Shown here piece by piece: positions 1,041-17,428 of a DNA stretch of 17,428 nucleotides. Source of the stretch: a virus (taxonomy: Duplodnaviria > Heunggongvirae > Uroviricota > Caudoviricetes); IMG/VR virus record IMGVR_UViG_2657244986_000007, positions 1 to 17,428 of that record; one strand, written 5' to 3'. Position 1 is the stretch's first letter; every line of letters begins with the position of its first letter. The notes below the pieces were generated by a model. That model saw nothing but the letters and a program-made list of their open reading frames with translations. It did no database searches and was not told where the DNA came from. The position numbers and the translations under genes were made by a program.

Positions 1041-1167
1041 CACGAAGCCAGCCATTGAGCTGGTTTTCTTTTATGCAAAGCACACCGCACCGTAGCCACA
1101 GCGGATAAGGTGATTATTTTTGTCTGTCTGGTATTTGGTTTGATGTGCTTTCAGAAAGGCCGTGCTT

Positions 1168-1201
1168 AAAACGCAAAAAGCCCCGAGCTATTAACTCAGG
1201 G
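1168..1201 (-). terminator. tR'-like intrinsic terminator
   Basis: Minus strand: GCCCTGAG-TTAATAG-CTCGGGGC (8-bp stem with one G.U) followed by TTTTTGCGTTTT, about 60 nt downstream of the predicted pR' start. Confidence 0.7.
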
Positions 1202-1232
1202 CTTTATTTAACGAGTGCATTTATCCATCGTT
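1172..1232 (-). ncRNA. Short pR' leader transcript (6S-RNA analogue, about 60 nt)
   Basis: Inferred from promoter and terminator positions; transcript ends were not measured. Confidence 0.4.
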
Positions 1233-1270
1233 GAGTCAAATTTACCCAACTTTATTCAAAAAGTCAATAT
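1232..1270 (-). promoter_or_regulatory. Late promoter pR' with Q-utilisation (qut) region
   Basis: Minus strand has TTGACT (plus 1262-1267), a 17-bp spacer and TAAATT (plus 1239-1244), directly downstream of the Q stop, as in lambda. Confidence 0.7.
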
Positions 1271-1309
1271 TATGCCGTTAATATGTTGCCATCCGTGGCA
1301 ATCATGCTG

Positions 1310-1933
1310 CTAACGTGTGACCGCATTCAAAATGTTGTCTGCGATTGACTCTTCTTTGTGGCATTGCACCACCAGAGCGTCATACAGCGGCTTAACAGTG
1401 CGTGACCAGGTGGGTTGGGTAAGATTTGGGATTAGCATCGTCACAGCGCGATATGCGGCGCTTGCTGGCATCCTTGAATAGCCGACACCTTTGCATCTTC
1501 CGCATTCTTTCTCAACAACTCTCCCCCACTGCTCTGTTTTTGCTATATCAACCGCACGGCCTGTACCGTGGCAATCTCTGCATCTTGCGCCCGGCGTCGC
1601 GGCACTACGGCAATAATCCGCATAAGCGAATGTTGCGAGCACTTGCAGTACCTTTGCCTTAGTATTTCCTTCAAGCTTTGCCACACCACGGTATTTCCCC
1701 GATACCTTGTGTGCAAATTGCATCAGATAGTTGATAGCCTTTTGTTTGTCGTTCTGGCTGAGTTCGTGCTTACCACAGAATGCAGCCATGCCGAATCCGG
1801 CTTGTGATTGCGCCATCCCCATAGCAGCCATCACATCAGTACCGGAAAGAGAGTCAGAAGCCGTGGCCCGTGGTGAGTCACTCATCATCGGGCTTTTTGG
1901 CGAATGAAATTTAGCTACGCTTTCGAGTCTCAT
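1310..1933 (-). CDS. Q: Late-gene antiterminator Q, 207 aa
   Basis: Protein [44 protein letters not shown]... is recognised as lambda Q, with its Cys-rich zinc-binding region. The start overlaps the upstream gene's stop (ATGA). Confidence 0.95.
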
Positions 1934-2595
1934 GCGCCTTCTCCCTGTACCTGAATCAATGTGAGGTTTCCGCAGAACACTGCGCCGGTATCGATATACA
2001 TCTGGTTGGCAAACTTGAGTGGTTTCACTGCTGGCGTATGACCAAAGATGAACGTGTCCGCGCCTTTGATTTCTTTCACGATCCCGTCTTGTGAGTTGCT
2101 GATTCGTTCGCGGTTCCAGATTACCTGCTGATGATCAACTGGCTTTCCAAACTCGTATTCGTCACAAGGATAATCGGCGTGGCAGATGACGTATTTTTTA
2201 CCTTTGCTCACCAGTTCGATGATTAACGGAAGTTCATCTGCTTTATGGGCAAGAGCTTTAGCCAGAATTTCTTTGTCGTAATCGAGATTAAAGAGCCAGC
2301 CACCGCCATTAAACAGCCAGTGATTGACGTTTCCACGCTCTGATAAGCCATCAATCATCATTTGCTCATGGTTTCCACGTACAGCTCTGAACCAGGTGAA
2401 TGTGATTAATTCCAGGCATTCAACGTTCTCTGTACCGCGATCGACCAAATCGCCAACAGAGATAAGCAGGTCTTTTTTGGTGTCGAATCCTATCGTCTCC
2501 AGTTTTTCCATCAGGTTCGTGTAGCATCCGTGCAGATCGCCAACTACCCAAATATTTCGGTATTTGCTGCCATCAATTCTTTCGTAATAGCGCAT
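1930..2595 (-). CDS. Ser/Thr protein phosphatase (lambda PPase / ORF221-like), 221 aa
   Basis: From [25 protein letters not shown]...GNHE: the GDLHG, GDLVDRG and GNHE metallophosphatase motifs are present. Start chosen at the internal ATG (2595) with a GGAG Shine-Dalgarno; the track's 2670 start is probably an upstream extension. Confidence 0.9.
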
Positions 2596-2779
2596 CTCTT
2601 TCACTCCATCCGCGATGAACCATAAGAACGTCGTTGACGATGGCGTGCATTTTCCCGTCTTTATCATCAACGTATTTTCTGACCGTACCGCGACTACATT
2701 TCAGTCTGCGTGCTACTTCTGTCTGGTTTCCGTATGCTTCAACGAGCATGTCTGGAATGGTTTTTACTGAGAACGTCAT
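2573..2779 (-). CDS. ninH: NinH, 68 aa
   Basis: Protein [37 protein letters not shown]... is recognised as lambda NinH (HTH-like). Sits between ninG and the phosphatase. Confidence 0.9.
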
Positions 2780-3387
2780 GCGGCCTCACTTCTGCTGTTT
2801 CGCAGGTCTTTGAGTTTCTGCTGATACTCCGCCTTGATGGCCCTGCACTCTTCGACAGTCCAGCGATGGCGGTTATGGTTTGATTCGATTTCGTCTACTG
2901 CTTCCTGCCCAATGCGATTAATCAGTTCGACGCGATACGGAACGAGATTTCCGCTTTTGTGCTGGTTGCACACCACGCATTGCTTGTGAATATTGCGTTC
3001 ATCAAATCGGAGTTGAGGTGCCGCAGCAGTTGTCCGGTAATGTCCGGCATCCCACTGAGCAGACGTGAGCGTTCCGCACGAGATACATGGTAAGTCGCGG
3101 TCTCTTTCTCTGATGAAGGCGTTTACGGCTTGTTGGGCTTGTTTAATCCAGTAACTGCGGGGCTTTAAGGCGAGTTTTCGAATCTTAAGTTTATCTTTCT
3201 GTTTCTGCTCCTCTCGTCGTCGTTTCTTCTCTGCTGCTTTTTCCGCTTTTTCGCGTTCTTTGCTTCGTCGTTCGAGTGCTATCTTTGTTCCACACTCTGG
3301 AGAGCACCACCACTGATTAGCGAATGCAGGGTGAAACCATTCCCGACATTCTTCGTTTTTACATCGTCTTCGCGCTGGTTTAGCCAT
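2776..3387 (-). CDS. ninG: NinG / Rap recombination-associated structure-specific endonuclease
   Basis: Protein [33 protein letters not shown]... is recognised as lambda NinG. Confidence 0.9.
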
Positions 3388-3556
3388 CGTCTTCTTCCTC
3401 GTACATTGAGCTATTCGGATCGCTCATCAGTTCTGCACAGCAGTGCTCACACACGTGAACTTCCAGCACATGCAGCTTCTGACCGCAGTTAGCGCACGTT
3501 AAAGCCCGCTCGACGCTTTCTTTCTGGTATTGAAGGGATTGGGATGGACTAAGCAT
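3380..3556 (-). CDS. ninF: NinF, 58 aa (absent from the ORF track because under 60 aa)
   Basis: Hand translation of the minus strand gives [58 protein letters not shown]. The stop overlaps the ninG ATG. Confidence 0.85.
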
Positions 3557-3896
3557 TATTGGCGTCCTGCATCATGAGAAATACAATCATGGCGGCGCGG
3601 AGTGGGTTGTTGTCTATGGTAATAAATTCACAAAATCTATCCGCCTCCCACCAATATTCATTCTTCATTCCAGGATTATTTCTTTCGTATGCACATATGC
3701 TGATCTGATGTTTTGCAATTACAGGCCATGCATCTGCTGGGTTATTGCAGTAGTCGTACCATCGATAATTACCATTTACTTCATTGCCAACAGACCGTCC
3801 ATCTGCGTTGTGCGGATAACCTAATGGTTTTGCCCCAACTATCGCTTTAAATACTCGCTTGTTAATTTCAAAATCACTTAACTGTGAATAATCCAT
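3549..3896 (-). CDS. Hypothetical nin-region protein (NinX / DUF2591-like), about 115 aa
   Basis: ORF MDYSQLSDFEINKRVFKAIVGAKPLGYPHNADG.... Start placed at the ATG at 3896 (AGGA Shine-Dalgarno 7 nt upstream); an ATG at 3902 coupled to the ninE stop is the alternative. The track's 3938 start is a GTG extension. Confidence 0.65.
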   Translation of the reverse strand: MDYSQLSDFEINKRVFKAIVGAKPLGYPHNADGRSVGNEVNGNYRWYDYCNNPADAWPVIAKHQISICAYERNNPGMKNEYWWEADRFCEFITIDNNPLRAAMIVFLMMQDANNA

Positions 3897-3898
3897 TG

Positions 3899-4075
3899 TC
3901 ATTTCCTCGCACGATGTCTTAGCCACCGGATATCCCACAGGTGAGCCGTGTAGTTGAAGGTTTTTACGTCAGATTCTTTTGGGATTGGCTTGCGTTTATT
4001 TCTGGAGCGTTTCGTTGGAAGGTATTTGCAGTTTTCGCAGATTATGTCGGTGATACTTCGTCGCTGTCTCGCCAC
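3899..4075 (-). CDS. ninE: NinE, 58 aa, GTG start (absent from the ORF track)
   Basis: Hand translation: (M)[57 protein letters not shown], recognised as lambda NinE. AAGGAGG lies 4 nt upstream of the GTG. Confidence 0.75.
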
Positions 4076-4215
4076 ACGTCCTCCTTTTCCTGCGGTAGTG
4101 GTAACACCCCTGTTGGTGTTCTTTCACATCGGAGACACCATCGATTCCAGTAAGGTTGCCCGGGTCGAAAGCGATCGTCTTCCTTTCGCTCTCCACATCG
4201 ATAACAGTGCTTCAT
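4042..4215 (-). CDS. ninD: Small Cys-rich protein, probable NinD (57 aa)
   Basis: [34 protein letters not shown].... The ATG overlaps the methyltransferase stop (ATGA). Size and position match lambda ninD; the sequence was not verified from memory. Confidence 0.55.
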
Positions 4216-4802
4216 GCGATCACCATTTTGCATGGTTTAATCGCCATGCCGGTAGCCAGTTCAAAATCGGAGTCGCACTGATTGCCCCACATATCCCACC
4301 CGGTCACTTTGTCGCGGCTAAATAACTCACAGCGCGGCACGTCGCCAAGCAACTTAGCTAACATGTCTCTTACGATCGGTGGTTTTGCACTGTGCTCCAT
4401 TCTCGGTGCGGTAAAGTGCTGGCATATTGAAGCGTCCATTCTCTCAGGTAACCGCCCTCGAACGGCAAACAAGCAATCCTCGCTATTTGCCCGGGTCATA
4501 TGCCCCATTCCGATCGCACTGTTGCCTTTGTGCTTATTGGTTTTGTGCCAAGTAAAGCCTTTCATAGTCATCAACCTGAATCCCCACGCCTCAATTACCT
4601 TTAGCGCTTCGGCTGGCTGTGTCGGCACCCACCACATCGCTAACAAGCAAGATTCTGGATCCGCTAAATCCCATACTGGCAGTCGGCAAATGTCCTGAAC
4701 ATTCATAACATCGTATTTATGTCCAGCACCGCGATTGCCATCGTTGGCTTTGTCGCGATATTGCCAAGGCGGATCTGCGTAAATAAGTCGGTATTTGTTC
4801 AT
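4212..4802 (-). CDS. DNA N6-adenine methyltransferase, MT-A70 family, 196 aa
   Basis: N-terminal motif YADPPW (DPPW catalytic motif) and overall MT-A70-like layout. Occupies the position of lambda ninC, coupled to the ninB stop. Confidence 0.8.
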
Positions 4803-5239
4803 TCAGTTTTATCTCCCCATCTCGCTTTCCACTCCAGAGCCAGTCGCGCTTCGTCTGACCATTTAACGCCACGTTCTGTACCGAATGCCTGTATAAGCTC
4901 TAATAGCTCCGCAAATTCGCCTACACGCATCCTGCTGGTTGACTGGCCTATTACCACAAAGCCATTCCCGGCAAGGTTAGGAACAACGTCCTGCTGCTTT
5001 AATGCTGCGGTAAACACACACTTCCAGCTTTCTGCATCCAGCCAGCGACCATGCCATTCAACCTGACGAGAGACGTCACCAAGGCAAGCCCAAAGCTTTC
5101 GGTTTTGGTCTAAGCTGCGGTTGCGTTCCTGAATGGTTACTACGATTGGTTTGGTTGGGTCTGGAAGGATTTGCTGGATAGCTTGAATGGCGTTCTGCTG
5201 ATGGATGGGGCTTCTTAGTTCAAACGTTAGTTTCCTCAT
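4799..5239 (-). CDS. ninB: NinB recombination protein, 146 aa
   Basis: Protein MRKLTFELRSPIHQQNAIQAIQQILPDPTKPIVVTIQERNRSLDQNRKLWACLGDV... is recognised as lambda NinB. Confidence 0.9.
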   Translation of the reverse strand: MRKLTFELRSPIHQQNAIQAIQQILPDPTKPIVVTIQERNRSLDQNRKLWACLGDVSRQVEWHGRWLDAESWKCVFTAALKQQDVVPNLAGNGFVVIGQSTSRMRVGEFAELLELIQAFGTERGVKWSDEARLALEWKARWGDKTE

Positions 5240-5474
5240 TGCTCACCTTCTGCACGCATGGATTAATTAACGCCAAAATAGCTTCTGGTTTCTCAATAAC
5301 ATCGAACCGCTCACCACTTGCCATTCTTACAATCGTAATCCCGGCCTCAAATAGGGTTTCGATGTTGTCAGAGTTAACGTACAAGGGCTCATATGCACTT
5401 CTGGTGCTTTCTATCACGCCTGTGCTTGGTGGCTGATAGATGCTGCATTGCATGGTTAATTTTATAAATGGCAT
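5220..5474 (-). CDS. Hypothetical protein, 84 aa
   Basis: ORF with a strong Shine-Dalgarno (GGAG 7 nt before the ATG), in the ren-equivalent position between the helicase and ninB. Confidence 0.6.
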   Translation of the reverse strand: MPFIKLTMQCSIYQPPSTGVIESTRSAYEPLYVNSDNIETLFEAGITIVRMASGERFDVIEKPEAILALINPCVQKVSNEETNV

Positions 5475-5478
5475 ATAC

Positions 5479-5742
5479 TCACTCCTTCACTTTGATTCCA
5501 GCGGCGCGGATAGCCTCTACATCGCTTTCGTATTGCGATTCTGCACCTGAGTCATAGCCAATGTGATAATCACCGGGAAGTGGGCCTTTCTTTGGCTTTT
5601 GCAGCTCAATCTCGATAGCTGCTCGCGATGCCTGCCACGCTTGCCAATACATCTCAACTATATTGGCGTATATTTTATTTTTAGGATCACATCCGGTGTA
5701 ATTTTCAAACCATTCTTCAAACTGCTTTCTTGATTCGTCCAT
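5479..5742 (-). CDS. Hypothetical protein, 87 aa
   Basis: ORF MDESRKQFEEWFENYTGCDPKNKIY... with a GAGGG Shine-Dalgarno upstream. Confidence 0.6.
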   Translation of the reverse strand: MDESRKQFEEWFENYTGCDPKNKIYANIVEMYWQAWQASRAAIEIELQKPKKGPLPGDYHIGYDSGAESQYESDVEAIRAAGIKVKE

Positions 5743-5759
5743 CGATACTTACCCTCAGT

Positions 5760-5966
5760 TCAACTCACAAAACGCCACGCCATTTTTGCTACAGCGACAG
5801 GCATAACACCGATAATCACCCACAGGAAAATGCTACCGAAAAGCACACCCACCAGGTCTTTACCTTCGCCTACCAACCGGACAAAACTGCTGGCAACAAC
5901 AATGAACGTCGCCACCATCCACATAGCACCGAGAATCCTCAATGCAGAGAAAATTAACTCAGCCAC
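5760..5966 (-). CDS. Small hydrophobic protein with two predicted transmembrane segments, 68 aa, GTG start
   Basis: (M)AELIFSALRILGAMWMVATFIVVASSFVRLVGEGKDLVGVLFGSIFLWVIIGVMPVAVAKMAWRFVS. GGAGG lies 7-8 nt upstream of the GTG. Confidence 0.5.
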   Translation of the reverse strand: MAELIFSALRILGAMWMVATFIVVASSFVRLVGEGKDLVGVLFGSIFLWVIIGVMPVAVAKMAWRFVS

Positions 5967-5981
5967 GATTCACCCTCCCCC

Positions 5982-6013
5982 AAATAAAAAGGCCTGCGAT
6001 TACCAGCAGGCCT
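5982..6013 (-). terminator. tR2-like intrinsic terminator between the replication and nin modules
   Basis: Perfect inverted repeat AGGCCTGC-N8-GCAGGCCT (5990-6013) followed on the minus strand by TTTTTATTT. Confidence 0.7.
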
Positions 6014-6038
6014 GTTATTAGCTCAGTAATGTAGATGG

Positions 6039-7415
6039 TCATACGTCCGCTCCTTGTGCATATCGTCTGCCACGTGCAGCGGGTGCATTTGATGTTGTGC
6101 AAATCTGTCTGGCTTCATCCTGGTCACATGCAACAAAGTGTCCGTTGCAGAACCGCTGGTAAACCGTACCAAGCGAGCCAAAACGGTTTTTTGTCACAAT
6201 GATTTCAGCAAATGGTGCGGCGCTACTGTTCTCGTCATATACCGCTTCCCGATAGAGCATGATGATTGAGTCTGCGTCCTGTTCAATGCTTCCTGAATCA
6301 CGCAAATCTGCGTTTGTCGGGCGTTTGTTTGGTCGCTTCTCAACATCGCGCGAAAGCTGACTCAGGGAGATAACAGGCGTTTTCAGGTCTTTCGCCATCG
6401 CCTTCAGGCTTCCGGAGATGTGAGCAATTGCGAGGTCGTTGCGGTCTGCTTTCGGCTTCTCAATCAGGCCAAGATAATCCGCCATGATGAGTGACAGGTT
6501 TGGATTTTCCTGTTTGTGCCGTTCTGCGATTGAGCGTATTTCTTCGACCGATAACCGCGAGGCATCGACTACCCATACATCCAAATCTGCAAGCTGACTC
6601 ATGCCGTTAGCAACGCGCGCCCAGCCTTCGTCATCCATCGATGCAGGATTTCGCAGCACGCTAACCGACATCCTCCCGGCGTTGGCAATACTTCGCTCTG
6701 CAATCTGCAATGCGCTCATTTCCATCGAGAAAATCAACACTCCGCGCCGGACGTCAGAACCAGGAATAACGCGGCTTGCAACGCCTTCGGCAATCTTCAG
6801 CGCCAGTTCGGTTTTACCCATACCAGGACGAGCGGCGATAATCACCAGGTCTTCTGCGTTCATCCCTCCGGTGATGGCGTCAAGTTCGTCGATTCCGGTC
6901 TTCAGGGTATCTGACTCTTCTCCGTTCCTCAGACGCCTGTCAAGCGTGTCAGTGTAGTCAGTGATGATTTCCCCTAACCGTACAGGTTTAACCTCGTCAC
7001 GGGGCTTTCTGATGGCTGAAAGACGCTTTACAAGTTCATCCATCGCCTGACTCGATGCGTCGATGGTTCCGCTTTGGATTGGTTCACGCATTTCATCCAT
7101 GATTTCCAGCACCAGACGGCGGTGATAGTTATCCGCGACCATTCCGGCATATCCCTTCAGGTTTGCGGCACTCGGGCAGTTTTTGCTGGTCATCAGGATT
7201 GACGTGAAATGCTCCTCTCCGCACGCCTCGGCAACCATCAGCGCATCGATTAGGTTTCTGTTTCTCGCCTGCTTGCGAATAACCTCGAAGGCTTTCCGGT
7301 AGAGCGGAATTGAAAACGCTTCCGGCTCTAGCGTTGCCAGAACGTCGCTGGCAGTTGGTGTTAATCCACCAATCAGCAGGCCACCGATAACGCTCGCTTC
7401 GATATCCTGTTTCAT
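6039..7415 (-). CDS. Replicative DNA helicase, DnaB family, 458 aa
   Basis: Walker A ARPGMGKT and DnaB-like N- and C-terminal regions. Its ATG overlaps the O stop (ATGA). Confidence 0.9.
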
Positions 7416-8233
7416 GCAATCCCCCTGTCTGCAAACTTCCCTTCCCGTACTCCCATTAACGAATCTTCCCTCAGCAGGTAATCAAAATCAGCTGTCCAGC
7501 CCGTGTCGTTGTCTCCGAAGTAAAACGGCTTGGCCTGATGCACAAACGCCCTGACATACGCTCTGAAACCGTCCACGTTTGGCGTTTTCAGTTGCGGGAT
7601 GATTTTCTTCAGGCGGCGTTTGCGTTTCTCGTTGACCGCAACAGCGTGTGGCAGTCTGTCACCGACTTCGGTGTTGTAGGCGTTCAGGAAGGATTCGTAG
7701 TCGATTCGTTCTGCCTTGCGACGTTCAGGTTTAACCTGCCCATCGCCGCCCCCGTTAGGGGGTAAGGGGGTATTTGTATTTATTGTCTTTTGTATATTGT
7801 CTTTTGTGTTTAGCTGACTTGGCTTATACCCATTAGCCGACTCGGCTAATGTTTTATTAGCTGTTTTAGCTAATGTTAAGCTGTCCTGGCTAATCCACTG
7901 AGAAACCACCTTGTTCACTCCGATTTTCACGCCATCAGCAATGAGGAATTTACGCTCGATAAGCTGGCGCTTGGCAGCGCAAACATGAGTGTGATGAATA
8001 CCTGTCATGGCTGCTATCTGCGTGTTTGTGAGTCGATCCATCGGCTTATTGAATCCGTATGTCTTGCGCATGATAGCGAGCATCACCTTCAGCTGCCGGA
8101 CGGTTAAATCAGCCATCAGCAGACTGTCGGTAATCTCGTTAGCAACGCGCATGAAACCATCTTCGGTATCTGCCACGCGATGCTCCACGACCTCCAGTTG
8201 AGGCCTGTAATCAGCTAACTTAACGACGCCCAT
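7412..8233 (-). CDS. O: Replication initiator protein O (lambda O-like), 273 aa
   Basis: The N-terminal region (...[37 protein letters not shown]...) resembles lambda O. The gene contains the iteron array. Confidence 0.9.
7766..7894. repeat. Replication origin inside O: four iterons of about 19 bp plus an adjacent AT-rich region
   Basis: Iterons TTAGCTGACTTGGCTTATA, ATTAGCCGACTCGGCTAAT, ATTAGCTGTTTTAGCTAAT and TTAAGCTGTCCTGGCTAAT at about 7810-7894. AT-rich tract 7766-7809, next to a G-rich CCCCCGTTAGGGGGTAAGGGGG run. Confidence 0.8.
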
Positions 8234-8381
8234 GTTTCACTCCTGCTTTGGCTAGTCTGTAAACACCAACAAGGCGCTCTGCGAACGCCCTGCTATTTGC
8301 TGCGGCTACCACTAATCCCTCAGGTGAATCAGGGTGTCGAATCTCTTCTTTTTCCTGGTATTTCTTACGACGTTTTGTCAT
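8220..8381 (-). CDS. Small basic protein, 53 aa, between cII and O
   Basis: Hand translation: [58 protein letters not shown] lies 6 nt upstream of the ATG. The 3' end overlaps the O start. Confidence 0.45.
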   Translation of the reverse strand: MTKRRKKYQEKEEIRHPDSPEGLVVAAANSRAFAERLVGVYRLAKAGVKHGRR

Positions 8382-8384
8382 AAT

Positions 8385-8459
8385 TACTCCTGTGGATTGA
8401 TCCAGTCTTTCTACATCAGGCCTCGAAGAATTCGCCGTTCTTCGGGGCTTTTTCTTTTG
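8385..8459 (+). ncRNA. oop: oop-like antisense RNA overlapping the 3' end of cII, ending at an intrinsic terminator
   Basis: Plus-strand hairpin CCTCGAAGAA-TTCGCCG-TTCTTCGGGG (8421-8447) followed by CTTTTTCTTTTG, inside the last codons of cII, as for lambda oop. The 5' end and promoter were not located. Confidence 0.5.
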
Positions 8460-8697
8460 TCAGGTAATTGGCAAGCCGCTTAGTCAGCTCAGCCATTTCA
8501 TCGTCTTCGATTCCGTATTCCAGAACAGCCAGCATCATGCTTACCTGCGAGAAGAAACCATTCTTCCATCGGCTTACCTGATATTCAGGAACCCCCATCG
8601 CTCGAGCGAATGTCTTCTGCCCCATCAGTGCCAGTTTGTTCAGCAAGGCTGACTCGATGCGAGCCGCTTTCTTGCTTTTAGTTGCAATAGTACCCAT
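8416..8697 (-). CDS. cII: CII transcriptional activator homolog, 93 aa
   Basis: ...ARIESALLNKLALMGQKTFARAMGVPEYQVSRWKNGFFSQVSMMLAVLEYGIEDDEMAELTKRLA... resembles lambda CII. Confidence 0.9.
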   Translation of the reverse strand: MGTIATKSKKAARIESALLNKLALMGQKTFARAMGVPEYQVSRWKNGFFSQVSMMLAVLEYGIEDDEMAELTKRLANYLTKEKAPKNGEFFEA

Positions 8698-8719
8698 AGA
8701 TAATTTCCTTAATGATTAG

Positions 8720-8760
8720 ATAGAGTTGGCTTCGCAAAGAAACGCAAAACCATAGAGATT
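8720..8760 (+). promoter_or_regulatory. Probable pRE region with a CII-binding direct repeat (TTGC-N6-TTGC)
   Basis: Complement of 8724-8737 reads TTGCGTTTCTTTGC, at the 5' edge of cII and oriented for leftward (plus-strand) transcription toward cI. Confidence 0.55.
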
Positions 8761-8773
8761 TTTTTCTGGTAAT

Positions 8774-8805
8774 GCCCTTTTTCAGGGCGGGGATGTGTAA
8801 GAGCG
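8774..8805 (-). promoter_or_regulatory. nutR (boxA plus boxB hairpin)
   Basis: Minus strand reads CGCTCTTACACATCCCCGCCCTGAAAAAGGGC: boxA CGCTCTTACACA and the boxB stem-loop GCCCTGAAAAAGGGC, as in lambda nutR. Confidence 0.85.
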
Positions 8806-8813
8806 GGAATGTC

Positions 8814-10166
<1,353 letters not shown>

Positions 10167-10216
10167 TCCTCACCTCGATTTCGATAACCAAAAAACAAAC
10201 TATTTTCCGTTTAAAA

Positions 10217-10284
10217 ACAATGGAGTTTGTTTTTCACGCCCCTTTTTACAATATTTCTTGTTTACAACATACAATCTTTCTTGT
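10217..10284. promoter_or_regulatory. Left operator OL (three 434-type sites) with pL
   Basis: ACAATGGAGTTTGT (10217-10230), ACAATATTTCTTGT (10248-10261) and ACAATCTTTCTTGT (10271-10284), all ACAA-N6-TTGT. Confidence 0.85.
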
Positions 10285-10328
10285 AATTTTAAGCCATCAG
10301 CAGGACGCACTAACCACCATTGAAGGTG

Positions 10329-10359
10329 AGGCTCTTAAAAATTTAGCCCTGAAGAAGGG
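10329..10359 (+). promoter_or_regulatory. nutL (boxA plus boxB hairpin)
   Basis: GGCTCTTAAAAATTTAGCCCTGAAGAAGGGC: boxA-like GCTCTTAAA and the boxB stem-loop GCCCTGAAGAAGGGC. Confidence 0.8.
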
Positions 10360-10470
10360 CAGCATTCAAAGCAGAAAGCTTTGAGTAGCGCGAAATGCAG
10401 CTGCAAGGCAGCAACCGTGGAGATAAGCATCACGGCGCGTTACTCAAAGCTAACTGACAGGAGAATCCAG

Positions 10471-11368
<898 letters not shown>

Positions 11369-11401
11369 TTAAAAGACAGGCATACTAATAAACACTGCAC
11401 T

Positions 11402-11429
11402 GTGTATTCATTCCAACGAGTGAATACAC
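11402..11429. repeat. Perfect 9-bp inverted repeat, GTGTATTCA-N10-TGAATACAC
   Basis: Seen directly in the sequence. No U-tract on either strand, so it looks operator-like or RNA-structural rather than a terminator. Confidence 0.6.
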
Positions 11430-11491
11430 GGAGCAATGTCGCTCGTAACTAAACAGGAGCCGACTTGTTCTGATTATTGGAAATCTTCTTT

Positions 11492-11519
11492 GCCCTCCAA
11501 TGTGAGGGCAGTTTTTTTT
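11492..11519 (+). terminator. Intrinsic terminator (tL-like) 13 nt upstream of the next start codon
   Basis: GCCCTC-CAATGT-GAGGGC followed by AGTTTTTTTT. Confidence 0.7.
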
Positions 11520-11532
11520 GACGGAGTAAACG

Positions 11533-11781
11533 ATGATAAAAACTGATTACCCTGCAGAGCTTAAACAAAAAGTAATAACAGCAATTAAATGCTCTTTTAT
11601 CTCATGTCGTACAGATGAAGAACGATATGTCGTTGAGTGTGCAATTGTCGAGTTTCTCACAGCGATGGAATTTACCGCTGCAGAATCAATAGATGTATTA
11701 AAGCAATCAGACGGAAATGATATTGAAACGGATGATGTTATTGACCGACTAATAAAATCATTCGAAGAAGAAATAGAGTAG
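11533..11781 (+). CDS. Small acidic protein, 82 aa, unknown function
   Basis: MIKTDYPAELKQKVITAIKCSFISCRTDEERYVVECAIVEF...DGNDIETDDVIDRLIKSFEEEIE, with an acidic C-terminus. GGAG Shine-Dalgarno upstream. Confidence 0.65.
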   Translation: MIKTDYPAELKQKVITAIKCSFISCRTDEERYVVECAIVEFLTAMEFTAAESIDVLKQSDGNDIETDDVIDRLIKSFEEEIE

Positions 11782-11864
11782 CCGCCTGAGCGCGGCTTTA
11801 CCGCATACCAATAATGCTTCACGAGAGGCATTTTCGTTATGCAATCAAATATAAGGAGTTACCC

Positions 11865-11999
11865 ATGATGCACTTTCAGCTCGCGGGTAGCGGCGTCATG
11901 TCCGCTTTCTACCCGCACGAATCTGAATTATCACGCCGAGTTAAACAATTAATCAGAGCAGCAAAGAAACAACTGGAGGCGTTATGCGCAATGAAATAG
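11865..11999 (+). CDS. cIII: CIII-like small protein (putative FtsH-inhibitor helix), 44 aa
   Basis: MMHFQLAGSGVMSAFYPHESELSRRVKQLIRAAKKQLEALCAMK. Its central amphipathic helix resembles lambda CIII (ESLLERITRKLRDGWKRL). AAGGAG Shine-Dalgarno upstream. Confidence 0.55.
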   Translation: MMHFQLAGSGVMSAFYPHESELSRRVKQLIRAAKKQLEALCAMK

Positions 12000-12136
12000 C
12001 CATTAATCACCAGATGCTTCGTGCTGCACAGAACAAAGCAGTAATAGCCAGATTTATTGGTGATTCCAAAATGTGGCTTGAAGCAAATAAAGCGATGAAA
12101 TCAGCCATCAACCTTCCGTGGTATCGCAGGAAATGA
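11984..12136 (+). CDS. Small protein, 50 aa, possibly Kil-like
   Basis: Hand translation: MRNEIAINHQMLRAAQNKAVIARFIGDSKMWLEANKAMKSAINLPWYRRK. GGAGG Shine-Dalgarno upstream; overlaps the cIII-like 3' end in another frame. The Kil assignment is a recollection of a FIGDxKM-like motif, unverified. Confidence 0.4.
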   Translation: MRNEIAINHQMLRAAQNKAVIARFIGDSKMWLEANKAMKSAINLPWYRRK

Positions 12137-12211
12137 GTTTTACAGATAACTGGTAAGACGAAGAATTCATTCGTCAGATGAAAGAATTAATCGGTAACGA
12201 AGGAGATATTC

Positions 12212-12382
12212 ATGTCACTTGCAACCACAGTGAAGGAGAGCAAGTTACAGAGACGCATGTACACGCAGAAAGCTCTCTGGTATCGCCATAATGGCGACCG
12301 CGAAGGAATGCGGGTATGCCTTAATTTGTCCCGAGTCGAAGTATTAAATCAGCGTTATTTTCTTGGGCCATGTCCATTCTGA
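12212..12382 (+). CDS. Small hypothetical protein, 56 aa
   Basis: MSLATTVKESKLQRRMYTQKALWYRHNGDREGMRVCLNLSRVEVLNQRYFLGPCPF. AAGGAGA Shine-Dalgarno upstream. Ends 8 nt before the annealing-protein start. Confidence 0.4.
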   Translation: MSLATTVKESKLQRRMYTQKALWYRHNGDREGMRVCLNLSRVEVLNQRYFLGPCPF

Positions 12383-12390
12383 GGTGATTT

Positions 12391-13098
12391 ATGGATTTGA
12401 ATAAATTCGATGAGCCATTCAGCCCTGAAGATATCGAATGGCGAATACAGCAAAGCGGTAAAACACGCGATGGCAAAGTGTGGGCTATGGTGCTGGCTTA
12501 TGTCACGAACCGGGCAATCATGAAACGCCTGGACGATGTTTGCGGCAAAGCAGGATGGCGCAATGAATACCGCGATATTCCCAACAACGGAGGCGTTGAA
12601 TGCGGCATATCAATCAGGATTGATTCCGAATGGGTAACCAAATGGGATGCTGCTGAAAACACGCAGGTAGAAGCCGTCAAAGGTGGTCGTTCAGGTGCAA
12701 TGAAGCGTGCTGCCGTTCAGTGGGGAATCGGTCGGTATCTGTATAACCTTGAGGAAGGTTTCGCACAAACATCTCTCGATAAAAAGCATGGGTGGCACAG
12801 GGCAAAACTGAAGGATGGAACAGGATTTTACTGGTCCCCTCCATCGCTGCCGGGCTGGGCAATCCCAGCATCAGATAACAAACCATCACCAGAAAATACC
12901 AACCAGAAATCTCCATCGGTTGACTGCGAACAAATCCTGAAAGACTTCAGCGATTATGCGTCAACAGAAACTGACAAGAAAAAACTCATCGAGCGTTATC
13001 AGCGTGACTGGCAATTAATGGCTGGCAACGAGGAGGCGCAGGCTAAATGCGTTCAGGTAATGAACATCAGAGTTAACGAGCTAAAACAGGCGGCATAA
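12391..13098 (+). CDS. Single-strand annealing recombinase, Rad52/Rad22 family, 235 aa
   Basis: Central motif ...GGRSGAMKRAAVQWGIGRYLYNL... is typical of Rad52-type phage annealing proteins. Located upstream of SSB and an exonuclease. Confidence 0.8.
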   Translation: MDLNKFDEPFSPEDIEWRIQQSGKTRDGKVWAMVLAYVTNRAIMKRLDDVCGKAGWRNEYRDIPNNGGVECGISIRIDSEWVTKWDAAENTQVEAVKGGRSGAMKRAAVQWGIGRYLYNLEEGFAQTSLDKKHGWHRAKLKDGTGFYWSPPSLPGWAIPASDNKPSPENTNQKSPSVDCEQILKDFSDYASTETDKKKLIERYQRDWQLMAGNEEAQAKCVQVMNIRVNELKQAA

Positions 13099-13572
13099 AT
13101 GGCAAGCAGAGGCGTAAATAAGGTGATCATTATTGGTCGCCTTGGGCATGATCCAGAAATCAGATATTCACCATCAGGAACGGCATTTGCAAACCTTACA
13201 GTTGCTACGTCAGAACAATGGCGTGATAAGCAAACTGGAGAGCAAAAGGAGCAGACGGAGTGGCACCGCGTGGTAATGAGCGGGAAACTGGCAGAAATTG
13301 CCAGCGAATATCTGCGAAAAGGCTCTGAGGTTTATCTTGAAGGAAAATTGCGGACAAGAAAATGGCAGGATCAAAGCGGACAGGATCGGTTCACTACCGA
13401 AGTCATCGTGGGCGTTGGTGGAACCATGCAAATGCTTGGTGGCAAGCAAGGAGGCAATGAACAGTCTTCACCTCAGCGAAATAACGGCCAGCAACAAAGA
13501 CAGCAATCTCAGCAGCATGGGAATCACAGCGAACCACCTATGAACTTCGACGATTCGGATATTCCGTTCTAG
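13099..13572 (+). CDS. ssb: Single-stranded DNA-binding protein (SSB), 157 aa
   Basis: OB-fold N-terminus ([43 protein letters not shown]...TEWHRVV), Gly/Gln-rich linker and acidic tail ending DDSDIPF. Confidence 0.95.
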
Positions 13573-13581
13573 GAGCTGAAT

Positions 13582-14061
13582 ATGAAAGTCTGCTCAAGAT
13601 GCCATCAACAGAAGGAAGAAAGGGACTTTCAAATCAGAAGAGCATCCAGAGATGGATTAACTGCCGCTTGCCGGGCTTGCCTGGCTGAATACGACAAAGA
13701 ACGCGCTGGATTGCCACATCGAGTATCAGCAAGGAGAGAATATCAATCATCGGAACGCGGAAGAGAACGGTGTAACGCAGCCAAAAAGCGGTTCATTCAG
13801 AGCAACCCATGGAAAAGAAAAGCCCACATCATTGTGGGTAATTTTTTGCGCGACGGTAAGCTAATCCGACCACCACAATGTGAGTGCTGCGGATCAGAAT
13901 GTAAACCACAGGCGCACCACTGCGACTACAGCAAACCAACCGATGTGATGTGGCTCTGCAAGTCATGTCATGTCGAGTGGCACAAACATAACAAACCTAT
14001 CTACCCAGACGAGGAACCAGTAACTCTCCCCTTCCCTCGTCACGCTATTCACGCAATTTAA
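13582..14061 (+). CDS. HNH-family endonuclease, 159 aa
   Basis: Cys pairs CSRCH, CRAC and CECCG, plus ...QAHHCDYSKPTDVMWLCKSCHVEWH, consistent with an HNH/zinc-binding nuclease motif. Confidence 0.7.
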   Translation: MKVCSRCHQQKEERDFQIRRASRDGLTAACRACLAEYDKERAGLPHRVSARREYQSSERGRERCNAAKKRFIQSNPWKRKAHIIVGNFLRDGKLIRPPQCECCGSECKPQAHHCDYSKPTDVMWLCKSCHVEWHKHNKPIYPDEEPVTLPFPRHAIHAI

Positions 14062-14069
14062 GGACTTAC

Positions 14070-14618
14070 ATGAATCACTTGATGGTTGACCTTGAAACAA
14101 TGGGCAACGGGCCATACGCGCCAGTTATTTCTATTGGGGCGGTATTCTTTGACCCGAATACCGGAGAAACAGGAGAAGAGTTCTCGGTAAATATCTCGCT
14201 TGAATCATCAATGCGATATCGAGCGCGTCCTGACGCTTCAACGATTTTATGGTGGCTGGAACAGAGTGAAGAAGCCAGAAAATCGCTAACCAGCAACACT
14301 CAGGAGCTTTCAACGGCTCTTTCATGGTTATCTGAATTCATCATAAAGAACGCTAACCACAAATTCGTTCAGGTTTGGGGGAATGGAGCATCATTTGACT
14401 GCGTTATTCTCCGAAACAGTTATTCGCTGACAGGGCAGCCAGTTCCGTGGCAGTGGTGGAATGACCGCGACGTAAGAACAATCGTCGAACTTGGGAAGGT
14501 AATAGGATTCGACCCTAAGCGAGATATGCCATTCAAAGGAACTCGCCACAACGCGCTTGATGATGCCATTCACCAAGCCAAATACGTTTCAGCGATCTGG
14601 AAAAAGTTAGCTAAATAA
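14070..14618 (+). CDS. 3'-5' exonuclease, DEDD (DnaQ-like) family, 182 aa
   Basis: Exo I motif MVDLETMG and Exo III motif H-NALDDA; size and layout fit DEDDh exonucleases. Confidence 0.8.
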   Translation: MNHLMVDLETMGNGPYAPVISIGAVFFDPNTGETGEEFSVNISLESSMRYRARPDASTILWWLEQSEEARKSLTSNTQELSTALSWLSEFIIKNANHKFVQVWGNGASFDCVILRNSYSLTGQPVPWQWWNDRDVRTIVELGKVIGFDPKRDMPFKGTRHNALDDAIHQAKYVSAIWKKLAK

Positions 14619-14634
14619 TCAACAGGAGAAAACC

Positions 14635-14931
14635 ATGCCAGCGCCTCTGTATGGTGCGGATGACGCGCGCCGCTGTTCCGGCAATTCCGTATCGGAGGTG
14701 CTGGATAAATTCAGAAAAAACTACGATCGGATAATGTCGCTACCGCAGGAAACGAAAGAGGAAAAGGAATTTCGCCATTGTATATGGCTTGCAGAGAAAG
14801 AAGAACGAGAGCGAATTTACCAGACATCAATCCGACCATTCCGCAAAGCCACATATACCCAATTCCCTGAATATATCGACCCGCGCCTGCGTAATTACCG
14901 CTCACGCTATGGCGCTATCAGTAATGACTGA
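14635..14931 (+). CDS. Hypothetical protein, 98 aa
   Basis: ORF with AGGAGA Shine-Dalgarno upstream; no recognisable motif. Confidence 0.55.
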
Positions 14932-14941
14932 GGAATTTACC

Positions 14942-15109
14942 ATGAGAGGACTTGCATACAATCCCGGCATTCTTCCGGCAGAAATGATTATTCGCCAACG
15001 CGTAAAGCCAATGCCATCGAGAGAGGAATTGCTTAAGAGAAAGAGTTTCGGTTCTGTTAATGACAACAAATATCTGAATGCGATGTTGCGCAAAGGAGGC
15101 AACCGGTGA
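14942..15109 (+). CDS. Hypothetical small protein, 55 aa
   Basis: [55 protein letters not shown], with GAGGAA upstream. The track ORF 14789..15109 is probably an extension. Confidence 0.45.
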
Positions 15110-15189
15110 CTGGACATGCAGCGATCCTCGACATGTGCTGTGGCAGCCGCATGTTCTGGTTAGATAAGAATGACGAACGGGCGAGATAA
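15106..15189 (+). pseudogene. 27-codon ORF with a strong RBS, possibly a truncated methyltransferase N-terminus (gene remnant)
   Basis: AGGAGG lies 5 nt before a GTG that overlaps the preceding stop (GTGA). Peptide (M)[26 protein letters not shown]; ILDMCCGS resembles SAM-binding motif I. Stops in all frames follow. Confidence 0.3.
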
Positions 15190-15239
15190 GCGATCGGTTA
15201 AGTGCTATAGTAATGCGCTTTTGTATTTATGGAGTGAAT

Positions 15240-15938
15240 ATGAAAAATATCCTACTGGCATCATTGTTAGTGGCATCGCCGGGTGCATTTGCAGCCAGCT
15301 TTGACTGCCAAAAGGCTTCGACAGCAATCGAACATAAAATCTGCGATAACGAACGTCTGTCAAAATTAGACGAACAGCTTAGCTCTGCCTATTCTAGTGC
15401 CCTCAAAGAAAACCCAGAGAACGCAGACACCATAAAAATGGTTCAACGTCAGTGGGTAAATATGCGTGGAAAACTCACTGATAATAAGGCTCTGGAGCTG
15501 GCTTATCTTATCCAAATTAATGGCCTCAAAGGTTTGGGGAGTTCAGTCAGCGTAACAGCGGCCAATGAGATACCCACGTCGACGCAGAAACATTCTGAAG
15601 AGCAGGAAGAAACAAGTAAGGCAGAAGTTAAGTCGGTCAAGAACGGCAATAAGCTAACCTTAGAGTCATTCCGAGCTAAATATGTAGAAGTAGATGGTGA
15701 GTATTACAGCACGACATCCATTCCTAGAGGCAGTTCGTTCTTGTTCACTTGCGCCAGTCGTATTGCTGATGACCAAGTGAATGTTTGGAAGAAACATGCA
15801 GCCAAAGAGGGCAAAATCGACCTATTCTTTGAGGTTGAGAATCACTTACACACTGCTATGTTGAACGCCAATTTCCAGAAGTTGAATTCAGACCCTGCCA
15901 AAAGAGGTATTTGTAATCTGATTAACGCAGTGCCGTAA
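15240..15938 (+). CDS. Secreted protein with an N-terminal LprI-like (DUF1311, lysozyme-inhibitor-like) domain, 232 aa
   Basis: Signal peptide MKNILLASLLVASPGAFA, then FDCQKASTAIEHKICDNERLSKLDEQLSSAYSSALKE...QRQWVNMRG, the hallmark DUF1311 pattern. AT-rich gene. The track start at 15213 is an extension. Confidence 0.75.
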   Translation: MKNILLASLLVASPGAFAASFDCQKASTAIEHKICDNERLSKLDEQLSSAYSSALKENPENADTIKMVQRQWVNMRGKLTDNKALELAYLIQINGLKGLGSSVSVTAANEIPTSTQKHSEEQEETSKAEVKSVKNGNKLTLESFRAKYVEVDGEYYSTTSIPRGSSFLFTCASRIADDQVNVWKKHAAKEGKIDLFFEVENHLHTAMLNANFQKLNSDPAKRGICNLINAVP

Positions 15939-15948
15939 GTAAATTTAG

Positions 15949-15978
15949 GGCCACAGTTGTGGCCTTAAATATTTTTTC
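15949..15978 (+). terminator. Putative intrinsic terminator after the LprI-like gene
   Basis: GGCCA-CAGTTG-TGGCC followed by TTAAATATTTTTT. Confidence 0.55.
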
Positions 15979-16106
15979 AGCCTTTTCTTATTTGTAATAA
16001 GCAGTACTTAGTAGTGCTTATAAAACAGAATAAAAAACATATGACTTTGGCGATTACCCAGTAAAGATATTCGAAATAAATGTAAATATCGGCAATGAAT
16101 AACAAT

Positions 16107-16133
16107 CCTCGCACTCGCGGGGATTTCTTTTAT
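16107..16133 (+). terminator. Hairpin plus U-tract immediately upstream of the 16145 gene (terminator or attenuator-like)
   Basis: CCTCGC-ACTC-GCGGGG (one G.U pair) followed by ATTTCTTTTAT. The RBS GGGGA and the ATG follow within about 12 nt. Confidence 0.4.
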
Positions 16134-16144
16134 ATGGGGATAAT

Positions 16145-16945
16145 ATGACCATCCACTTTCACGGCAGCCCAATATGGGGGGATGAGCATGCCCCTACAGA
16201 TATGCTGATTAAAGCCCTTTACCGTGATGGTGGGGCTTTTGTTTCATTTGCCAGACCAGAGCAGATGAAAAAGATTGCCATGTTCCCTTGTGATATACGC
16301 CTTGATAACGGCGCTTTTAGCGACTGGATGAAAGCATTAAAGAAAGGCACTCCGGTAGACTGGAGTAAGAGGCGAGCAAAATTCTACGACTTTGTTGGGA
16401 AGTGGTTCAGCAGAATTGAATGGTTTCTTATACCTGACGTTATCGAAGGGACAGAGGCAGAAAACGACGAGCAGATTGAGTTGGTTCCTGATTGGCTAAA
16501 ATCAAAAGCGGTTCCGGTCTGGCATACCGACGAATCAATTGAACGTCTTTTACGCCTTTCTGGCAAATTTGAATGGGTGGCGATTGGATGCTGCGGCCCA
16601 CACAGGCACATACGCTCTAAATGGTGGGAACAGAGAATGGATGAAGTTTTCACTGAGCTTTATATCAATCGTAATTTGAAAGTGAAAATTCATGGTCTTC
16701 GAATGCTCGACGTGAGAGTTCTTGGTATGTATCCGTTCGCCAGTGCGGATTCTACTAATGTTGCTGTTAACGTACCGAAGACAGAGAAGCGATTTCCTGA
16801 GATTACTGACAAACTGGCACGTACAGCTGTACTTCGCGCTGCTATTGAAAAGGTGCACCCGCCATCGATATCAGCATGGGTAGACAGAAAGATGAGAGAG
16901 CCGGCGCAAGCCGGTTTTTTATTTGAATTCACCGACGCCGCTTAA
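16145..16945 (+). CDS. Protein of unknown function, 266 aa
   Basis: Long ORF preceded by GGGGA. No motif I can assign with confidence (no P-loop, no PP-loop, no HTH recognised). Confidence 0.75.
   Translation: MTIHFHGSPIWGDEHAPTDMLIKALYRDGGAFVSFARPEQMKKIAMFPCDIRLDNGAFSDWMKALKKGTPVDWSKRRAKFYDFVGKWFSRIEWFLIPDVIEGTEAENDEQIELVPDWLKSKAVPVWHTDESIERLLRLSGKFEWVAIGCCGPHRHIRSKWWEQRMDEVFTELYINRNLKVKIHGLRMLDVRVLGMYPFASADSTNVAVNVPKTEKRFPEITDKLARTAVLRAAIEKVHPPSISAWVDRKMREPAQAGFLFEFTDAA
16899..16924 (+). terminator. Intrinsic-terminator-like hairpin with a GCAA tetraloop inside the last 15 codons of the 16145 gene
   Basis: CCGGC-GCAA-GCCGG followed by TTTTTTATTT. Confidence 0.55.
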
Positions 16946-16964
16946 TGCGGATTTCTTTTATCTG

Positions 16965-16989
16965 AACTCGCTACGGCGAGTTTTGTTTT
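16965..16989 (+). terminator. Intrinsic terminator downstream of the 16145 gene
   Basis: AACTCGC-TACG-GCGAGTT followed by TTTGTTTT. Confidence 0.6.
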
Positions 16990-17002
16990 ATGGAGATGAT
17001 AA

Positions 17003-17170
17003 ATGCACTTCCGAGTAACAGGTGAATGGAATGGAGAACCATTCAACAGAGTTATCGAAGCAGAGAACATCAACGACTGCTATGACCACTGGATGCTGTG
17101 GGCGCAGATGGCACATGCAGACGTAACCAATATTCGAATTGAAGAACTGAAAGAACACCAAGCCGCCTGA
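17003..17170 (+). CDS. Small hypothetical protein, about 55 aa
   Basis: MHFRVTGEWNGEPFNRVIEAENINDCYDHWMLWAQMAHADVTNIRIEELKEH.... GGAGA Shine-Dalgarno upstream. The 3' end is uncertain by a few nt: my hand reading and the ORF track disagree on the stop position. Confidence 0.4.
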   Translation: MHFRVTGEWNGEPFNRVIEAENINDCYDHWMLWAQMAHADVTNIRIEELKEHQAA

Positions 17171-17186
17171 TGGCGGTTTTTTATTG
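17160..17186 (+). terminator. Intrinsic terminator
   Basis: CCGCC-TGAT-GGCGG followed by TTTTTTATT. Confidence 0.7.
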
Positions 17187-17227
17187 CCTGATTTGCAGGT
17201 TCGATTCCCTATTCGGAGATAGCACTC

Positions 17228-17428
17228 ATGCAACACGAACTACAGCCTGATTCACTGGTTGATTTGAAATTCATCATGGCCGATACTGGATTCGGTAAAA
17301 CCTTCATCTATGACCGGATTAAGTCCGGAGACCTTCCAAAAGCCAAAGTTATCCACGGGCGAGCAAGATGGTTATATCGTGACCATTGTGAATTCAAAAA
17401 TAAGCTCTTAAGCCGCGCCAATGGGTAA
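17228..17428 (+). CDS. Excisionase / AlpA-family small DNA-binding protein (Xis-like), 66 aa
   Basis: ...LKFIMADTGFGKTFIYDRIKSGDLPKAKVIHGRARWLYRDHCEF... looks like an AlpA/Xis-type HTH. It sits at the distal end of the leftward operon where xis is expected; integrase would lie beyond the window. Confidence 0.55.
   Translation: MQHELQPDSLVDLKFIMADTGFGKTFIYDRIKSGDLPKAKVIHGRARWLYRDHCEFKNKLLSRANG

Follow-up and report, generated by a model that had tools for sequence, protein, structure and literature searches.

What does a small exported protein do for a phage that carries its gene among the early genes? The question is raised by a 17,428-nucleotide stretch of viral DNA (positions 1 to 17,428 of IMG/VR record IMGVR_UViG_2657244986_000007; hereafter the window), which is part of an Escherichia coli lambdoid (lambda-like) prophage. 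From 14635 to its end, the window is 99.9% identical by blastn to a prophage adjoining dsdC in strain 2018-01-1CC. At the distal, variable 'ea' end of its early-left (pL) operon lies a gene whose product RefSeq names a 'lysozyme inhibitor LprI family protein'. Comparison with related elements supports reading 15171-15975 as a self-contained moron cassette, which pairs this gene with a promoter-like element and a terminator. Judged by its sequence, the product should be a soluble periplasmic protein, and we tentatively suggest that it shields the envelope, for the phage, from an incoming agent that attacks it. The parts of the cassette are:

15171-15201, + strand: left edge of the cassette; blastn homology to Salmonella phage-plasmid SSU5 starts at 15171
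15203-15211, + strand: extended -10 promoter-like element, TGcTATAGT
15231-15234, + strand: Shine-Dalgarno (SD) sequence GGAG, 5 nt before the ATG at 15240 and invariant in 6/6 aligned copies
15240-15938, + strand: coding sequence (CDS) of the secreted two-domain protein (phrog_4675), 232 amino acids plus stop codon; a 699-bp CDS in RefSeq
15943-15970, + strand: intrinsic terminator-like hairpin with a 12-bp stem and a 4-nt loop, starting 5 nt past the stop codon and followed by a T-run (ATTTTTT) to 15979

The open reading frame (ORF) listed for this gene spans 15213-15938. We took the ATG at 15240 as the true start, because GGAG lies just upstream of it, the ATG at 15213 is not conserved in phage-plasmid copies and the RefSeq CDS is 699 bp long. 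Six copies were aligned upstream of this start (two lambdoid and four from phage-plasmids), and the 50 nt before the start codon were nearly invariant among them. Within a GTG-N-TATAGT context, TG and TATAGT are kept in 6/6 copies, with C, A or T at N. This TGnTATAGT motif fits the pattern of an extended -10 promoter, and its conservation makes promoter activity plausible; there is no credible -35 hexamer at 15203-15211, and a consensus scanner that needs at least 4/6 matches at -35 made no call there. The hairpin beyond the stop codon folds at -17.6 kcal/mol as RNA (z -4.1 against shuffles), and the lambdoid and SSU5 copies share its stem but not its loop. A terminator at 15943-15979 is well supported by these features.

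Is this unit mobile? SSU5 is 83% identical by blastn to window positions 15171-15975, and the shared segment consists solely of the ORF, the 69 bp before it and the terminator. It includes the promoter-like element and SD, and homology stops at 15975 on the right. A plasmid collection gave more than 180 matches at 80-90% identity, always in the same SSU5-type position, and their carriers were mostly non-mobilizable IncFIB replicons of ~105-117 kb from Enterobacter, Citrobacter, Salmonella and E. coli. Matches in a protein search also lay mostly on contigs of ~110 kb. On E. coli chromosomes, at least 80% of the cassette plus flanks is present in 107 of 5426 complete genomes (about 2%), where the left neighbour varies: DUF2737, an ead/Ea22-like gene or a methyltransferase. 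The lambda-like phage ev099, 98% identical over 15089-16136, has the ead/Ea22-like gene on the left and a small gene, xis and int directly on the right, without the DpdA-like gene that follows in the window. In 933W and ST104 the cassette is absent from the equivalent place, which holds other cargo.

Taken together, these homologies indicate a transfer of the cassette between SSU5-like phage-plasmids and lambdoid prophages. Its left edge also suggests the direction. Positions 15171-15201 align with the 3' end of SSU5_100, the ORF that precedes the cassette in SSU5-like phage-plasmids; the shared letters are GACGA.C...CGAGA.AAGC...GGTTAA, and the SSU5_100 stop codon TAA corresponds to 15199-15201. 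The leftmost ~30 bp therefore look like a remnant of SSU5_100, and because of this remnant the sequence suggests transfer from a phage-plasmid to a lambdoid phage.

The first-pass annotation of this DNA, made from its letters alone, had described the gene as an AT-rich moron set among phage early genes, with its own ribosome-binding site and a downstream terminator-like hairpin. Its account of the anatomy was borne out: the gene order runs from cI to Abc2, DUF2737, the gene itself, the DpdA-like gene and a TorI-type xis, and both expression signals are there and conserved. As for the moron, a discrete mobile unit in differing backbones and between differing neighbours was found, with a terminator and a promoter-like element, but not a distinct base composition. 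The claim that the gene is visibly AT-rich is weak, since its GC content of 43.9% compares with 46.9 +/- 3.1% over all 699-bp windows of the stretch (17th percentile), and its GC at third codon positions (GC3), 45.5%, lies within the 44.9-49.5% of its neighbours. We rejected base composition as evidence of foreign origin, as both differences fall inside the spread of the window. The moron reading rests instead on the comparative evidence of sharing with SSU5-like phage-plasmids and of differing neighbours, which is far stronger than composition. Like other lambdoid-phage morons, the cassette has a promoter-like element and a terminator, sits between backbone genes, is present or absent among relatives and occurs in unrelated backbones; it is unlike them in that its composition barely differs from its flanks and in that its pL-independent transcription is only putative.

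Some other regions are richer in AT. The clear case close by is the spacer after the gene (15939-16144, ~205 bp, 33% GC). Part of this spacer, 15955-16028, is matched at 80-83% by ~110 kb E. coli SSU5-like plasmids that lack the gene, and by this homology that part of the lambdoid spacer may also be derived from a phage-plasmid. Another comprises 10787-11290 (- strand) and 11533-11781 (+ strand), which at 35-40% GC make up the window's most AT-rich part; the former is a 167-aa ORF whose middle is coiled-coil-like and whose C-terminus gives a weak zinc-ribbon match. By composition, the region 10787-11781 is a stronger moron candidate than the gene studied here.

What kind of protein does the cassette encode? 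Domain limits were drawn from alignments with close relatives (70-99% identity) and distant ones (20-40%), and give the following parts:

15240-15293, + strand: Sec signal peptide, residues 1-18, with an AFA/AS cleavage motif (MKNILLASLLVASPGAFA followed by AS), kept across the family
15294-15536, + strand: N-domain, residues 19-99, a divergent and truncated helical bundle of DUF1311/LprI type, with conserved C23 and C35
15537-15650, + strand: variable linker, residues 100-137 (~38 aa), predicted to be disordered, with indels and substitutions in the alignments
15651-15935, + strand: C-domain, residues 138-232 (~95 aa), predicted as a short helix, a beta-hairpin and three helices

The signal peptide claimed by the first-pass annotation can be read directly from the sequence and is conserved in the family, and the signal region has neither a lipobox nor a membrane anchor. 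What had been described as about 120 residues of unknown function after the N-terminal domain is a disordered linker of ~38 aa and a conserved domain of ~95 aa. An AlphaFold (AF2) model built on a deeper alignment with distant members had a predicted local distance difference test score (pLDDT) of 72.9; a model from a shallow alignment (pLDDT 48) was not used. Scores were 82-91 in the N-domain, 22-31 in the linker (<35 for most of it) and mostly 83-95 in the C-domain, falling to ~47-70 over the last ~12-20 residues, and the predicted chain is all-helical except for the one beta-hairpin. In the C-domain C171 is invariant and C225 nearly so, and each domain has one conserved cysteine pair, probably forming a disulfide in each case. 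In the lipobox-type relatives P0059 and P0064, C23 falls in a gap and C35 is replaced.

The sole Pfam match was to LprI/DUF1311 (PF07007), with an E-value of 8e-5 and 23.4 bits against a cutoff of 22. It places residues 23-78 on profile positions 1-70 of 106, and leaves a predicted third helix (82-99) unmatched. The predicted N-domain is a helical bundle like those of solved DUF1311 structures. Two cysteine pairs within the domain define the PF07007 family, and the second pair is absent from this N-domain, which has C23 and C35 alone; C171 and C225 sit in the C-domain. The DUF1311 assignment of the first-pass annotation is thus correct in that the match exceeds the Pfam gathering cutoff, but it is marginal and covers only the first two-thirds of the profile. 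Distant family members score under this cutoff (P0056, P0062 and P0063 at 17.0-17.7 bits) or, for ORF027c of Aeromonas phage 44RR2.8t, give no match. PHROGs in contrast holds the full-length protein: phrog_4675, annotated 'unknown function', matches with an E-value of 6.8e-95 (residues 1-231 on positions 1-234 of 235), and the N-terminal half is found in three other unannotated phage families as well.

Other searches with the protein were uninformative. An NCBIfam scan gave noise-level matches only; a profile of the family against PDB sequences found nothing relevant (best E 0.28, to ORC6) and did not find 3GI7; and Foldseek against the PDB gave no match with E < 1. The C-domain belongs to no Pfam family and had no specific structural match, and of the 1.84 billion representative proteins searched with it, only a handful proved to be true relatives. 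P0060 and P0061, which had come up as C-domain relatives, were rejected as false positives, being long repeat proteins.

Is the gene functional at all? Ratios of nonsynonymous to synonymous substitution rates (dN/dS) were computed against the phage-plasmid copies and were 0.15-0.21 for the whole gene, 0.11-0.25 for the N-domain, 0.58-0.76 for the linker and 0.04-0.07 for the C-domain. This strong purifying selection in both domains argues that it is, and the C-domain, as the most constrained part, is probably the business end of the protein. A decaying or hitch-hiking ORF without function, which the lack of annotation for phrog_4675 and the truncation of some database copies might suggest, is hardly credible: dN/dS is 0.04-0.25 in the two domains at synonymous divergence (dS) of up to 1.8, relatives as distant as 27% identity retain the architecture and all four cysteines, and the promoter-like element, SD and terminator are conserved. 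The dS values themselves are uneven, 0.15-0.5 over the signal peptide and N-domain against 1.1-1.8 over the C-domain, which points to recombination with a breakpoint inside the gene or to a 5' half that is constrained at the nucleotide level.

The relatives extend well beyond temperate phages. A tblastn search of phage genomes gave 155 records, of which 151 were distant and mostly ~160-230 kb phages of Aeromonas, Escherichia and Klebsiella; those checked for taxonomy or gene order were T4-like, several of them Straboviridae, and a BFVD structure search returned the same T4-like proteins. ORF027c of 44RR2.8t aligns end to end at 27% identity and keeps the signal peptide, the ASFDC motif and all four cysteines, and the C-domain alone matches it with an E-value of 1e-6. 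Klebsiella and Escherichia T4-like phages have only the N-module in common with the protein, and a different C-terminal part. In two genera, represented by 44RR2.8t and Klebsiella phage PhiKpNIH-6, the homolog lies between the primase gene 61 and the dCTPase gene 56 in the early replication cluster, and in PhiKpNIH-6 the spackle (sp) gene is ~2 kb away. As far as these searches reach, nearly the whole family is harboured by mobile elements, chiefly phages, some of which are strictly virulent.

Chromosomal branches, which are more distant, occur on small integrative islands. A profile search led to the one in Yersinia enterocolitica, where the homolog lies 3' of genes for a lipoprotein and a small membrane protein on a small island with two serine recombinases; in another branch (P0059 and P0064), which has a lipobox-like LTGC, it lies on an integrase/AlpA island and adjoins a TM2-domain protein. 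No conserved partner gene was seen: the Yersinia and Logan island homologs are preceded by genes for 69-aa membrane proteins that do not resemble each other, and the E. coli and SSU5 copies have no counterpart. The Yersinia island (loci L006-L009, coordinates 486-6576), bounded by its two serine recombinases, also carries four large genes without a Pfam family (675, 153, 301 and 585 aa) and a helix-turn-helix regulator, and could be a defence island.

These contexts bear on one possible function, namely superinfection exclusion or receptor masking by a protein whose target is not a muralytic enzyme. Such a protein would block DNA entry, as Cor/Llp-type and Imm-type factors do, by binding either a host component of the periplasm or outer membrane or, on the phage side, the arriving tail tip or the proteins ejected with the DNA. 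An exported product of a prophage moron would suit this role, as would an early gene of T4-like phages that shares a cluster with sp, island neighbours that encode small membrane proteins, lipoproteins and a TM2 protein, and a shared N-domain joined to differing C-domains in Klebsiella and Escherichia T4-like phages, as expected of a specificity domain that is swapped when the target changes. Most known exclusion factors of the Cor/Llp and Imm kind, however, are membrane proteins or lipoproteins. The protein studied here has no membrane anchor or lipobox (the lipobox-like LTGC occurs in one distant branch), nothing ties it to a receptor, and we regard this explanation as doubtful.

Does the RefSeq name give a better lead? 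Taken literally, it would make the protein a periplasmic inhibitor of host (animal) lysozyme, a lysogenic-conversion factor for fitness or virulence like Mycobacterium tuberculosis LprI or like MliC, Ivy and PliC, and the first-pass annotation had named such a factor among its possibilities. Besides the name, the PF07007 match, the export of the protein, the moron-like cassette and the presence of clinical Enterobacterales among the carriers agree with this. M. tuberculosis LprI resembles the protein in being exported and in having a PF07007-type domain. It differs in being a lipoprotein that carries a MliC domain (PF09864) besides PF07007 (PMC7933661); our protein has no lipobox, and no match to PF09864 was found in it at E <= 0.1. 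The Salmonella PF07007 protein ScwA, the sole enterobacterial one with a lysozyme-resistance test in the literature searched, conferred no such resistance in vivo (PMC7933661), and in that literature lysozyme inhibition by a PF07007 domain alone had not been demonstrated. The marginal and partial Pfam match argues against this role too, as do the full-length homologs in virulent Aeromonas T4-like phages, where a virulence role in a lysogen is impossible. On these grounds the virulence reading loses its footing: MliC-like inhibition of animal c-type lysozyme is unlikely, and a host-lysozyme inhibitor acting as a fitness factor is very improbable overall. More generally, DUF1311 is a loose structural class, from whose name the transfer of function is weak. 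The linker and the ~95-aa C-domain lie outside the DUF1311 domain as it is known from proteins such as Pseudomonas putida PP0307 (PDB 3GI7).

ScwA (SL1344_0490) itself suggests a further possibility. It is periplasmic, has two disulfides and a PF07007 domain, is encoded by a horizontally acquired low-GC gene, controls the levels of MltD and other hydrolases and lyses cells when overproduced (PMC7933661). The cassette protein shares its export, cysteine pairs, PF07007 match and mobile origin, and might by analogy modulate the cell's own peptidoglycan hydrolases, tuning wall turnover, shape or the timing of lysis during lysogeny or infection. In ScwA, however, PF07007 occupies the C-terminal residues 185-271 of 275 and the remainder is unrelated, the gene is chromosomal and not phage-borne, and sequence searches with our protein returned no ScwA-like proteins. 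The phages that harbour the family also lyse cells by unrelated means (lambda-type holin, SSU5 and T4); to act in its own phage's lysis programme, the protein would therefore have to engage a host target that Aeromonas and Enterobacterales share. We consider a ScwA-like role unlikely. The looser suggestion of the first-pass annotation, modulation of cell-wall hydrolases, may still hold.

Two further comparisons concern protection of the cell wall. Some DUF1311 proteins are linked to immunity against type VI secretion system (T6SS) effectors: Etsi4 rescues the toxicity of Etse4 in enterohaemorrhagic E. coli (PMC12981562), and in Pantoea genes with an LprI domain lie 3' of lysozyme-like or pesticin-like T6SS effectors (PMC9796082; bioRxiv 10.64898/2026.08.01.741415). 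Such immunity proteins neutralise cell-wall toxins that act in the periplasm, and like the cassette protein they are small, exported, built on a DUF1311-like bundle and often 'orphan' and mobile; unlike it, they are single-domain proteins whose genes stand beside the effector or in T6SS islands. The other comparison is with T4 Spackle, which is likewise small, exported and encoded early, in the same early cluster of T4-like phages, and which we use as a functional analogy only. Spackle (Sp) inhibits the incoming tail lysozyme gp5 of T4.

What, then, is the most plausible function? A role in the envelope that serves the phage is favoured because virulent T4-like phages keep the gene among their early genes and temperate elements keep it as a moron. 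Within this, we prefer a mechanism that blocks muralytic attack, since the known envelope jobs protect the cell, by excluding superinfecting phages, resisting lysis from without or giving immunity to weapons that degrade the cell wall, and since DUF1311 is linked to muramidase immunity. We therefore put forward, tentatively, that the protein binds and neutralises an incoming envelope-attacking agent in the periplasm for the benefit of the phage. It would probably be made in the lysogen from its own putative promoter, and probably also early in lytic growth, by read-through from pL or, in T4-like phages, as an early gene. Its target might be a muralytic enzyme of a superinfecting phage tail, as gp5 is for Spackle, or a peptidoglycan-hydrolysing T6SS effector, as for other DUF1311-type immunity proteins, and the C-domain would probably supply the specificity.

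Several observations weigh against this proposal. The DUF1311 match stops two-thirds of the way through the domain and the second Pfam cysteine pair is missing, and the C-domain, although the most constrained part, has no informative relative in sequence or structure. PADLOC has no model for the protein. Etsi4 shows no pairwise similarity to it (best BLASTP E 8.6), and is itself a sub-threshold Pfam match. Next to the gene we saw no effector, toxin or hydrolase gene, whether in the lambdoid prophages, ev099, the SSU5-like elements, the Yersinia island or the T4-like phages. The upstream conservation that suggests a promoter could instead reflect translational signals, nucleotide-level constraint or recent recombination, given that dS is low over the 5' half of the gene too. 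Finally, Klebsiella T4-like phages carry Spackle and an N-domain homolog together, so the two are not simple substitutes. A search for Sp showed no Aeromonas phage among the top genera listed, which is a weak hint only, given that Sp diverges fast and that these Klebsiella phages carry both. Some probability also belongs to explanations other than those weighed here.

More speculatively, and with less confidence than in the neutralising role itself, this protein could found a phage-borne family of soluble periplasmic two-domain proteins, spread over T4-like phages, lambdoid prophages and SSU5-like phage-plasmids. In it, a DUF1311-type N-module would be joined to an exchangeable, fast-swapping C-module, and the two together would neutralise the tail lysozymes of superinfecting phages or T6SS muramidases. 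This would be an anti-lysin exclusion system additional to Spackle and independent of it, and spread as a moron.

If the neutralising role is correct, the cassette would be a portable shield against attack on the cell wall. This would help explain its retention in about 2% of complete E. coli genomes and in many ~110-kb phage-plasmids of Salmonella, Enterobacter and Citrobacter, and would add a soluble periplasmic class to the tools of superinfection exclusion and T6SS immunity. Much about the gene was already known: RefSeq annotates it, PHROGs holds its family as one of unknown function, and its anatomy is that of a standard moron, so that an annotated gene in a tidy moron is a useful but unsurprising find. 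In a literature search on SSU5, Cyrano and pHCM2-type elements, the gene was not mentioned. New beyond annotation are the exact cassette boundaries, the transfer between phage-plasmids and lambdoid phages, the two-domain build with its rare and constrained C-domain, and the full-length homologs in virulent T4-like phages. The LprI name in RefSeq should be read with caution, as the match behind it is marginal and partial, and the matched domain has no established lysozyme-inhibiting activity of its own.

The surrounding operon and the region to the right of the cassette contain these features:

9133-9765, + strand: cI-type repressor
then, + strand and in this order: N-like gene, Rad52-type annealing protein, SSB (single-stranded DNA-binding protein) and Rv2179c-like exonuclease
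14635-14931, + strand: Abc2
14942-15109, + strand: DUF2737 protein
16044-16136, + strand: conserved lambdoid 'linker', 87% identical to 933W, ST104 and many Shiga toxin (Stx) phages; phage backbone, outside the cassette
16104-16125, + strand: second terminator-like hairpin (fold -14 kcal/mol, z -3.3)
16145-16945, + strand: DpdA-like gene (phrog_887), followed by a small ORF and the TorI-type excisionase

An Rfam scan of the whole window gave no match. Two further ORFs, neither matched in Pfam or PADLOC scans, drew our attention. The ORF at 9690-10166 (+ strand) lies directly 3' of cI, in the position of rexAB in lambda; it has an internal Met followed by a signal-peptide-like stretch and may encode another exported lysogenic-conversion or exclusion protein. 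The ORF at 13582-14061 (+ strand), between the SSB and exonuclease genes, encodes a cysteine-rich protein of 159 aa with CxxC motifs.

The DpdA-like gene encodes 266 aa with a full-length match to phrog_887 ('queuine tRNA-ribosyltransferase') and no match in Pfam or NCBIfam. It is itself a cassette (16137-16948), absent from ev099 and flanked by a 13-bp direct repeat, GGATTTCTTTTAT, with copies at 16121-16133 and 16949-16961. The repeat is part of the terminator-like linker, which is contiguous in ev099, 933W and ST104. In the window, linker sequence lies at 16044-16136 and at 16949-17000, with tandem terminator-like hairpins at 16104-16125 and 16966-16985. The linker is common to Stx phages (933W, VT2-Sakai and others) and P22-like phages at 87-100% identity, just upstream of xis, and it may be a recombination hotspot for the exchange of ea-region cassettes.

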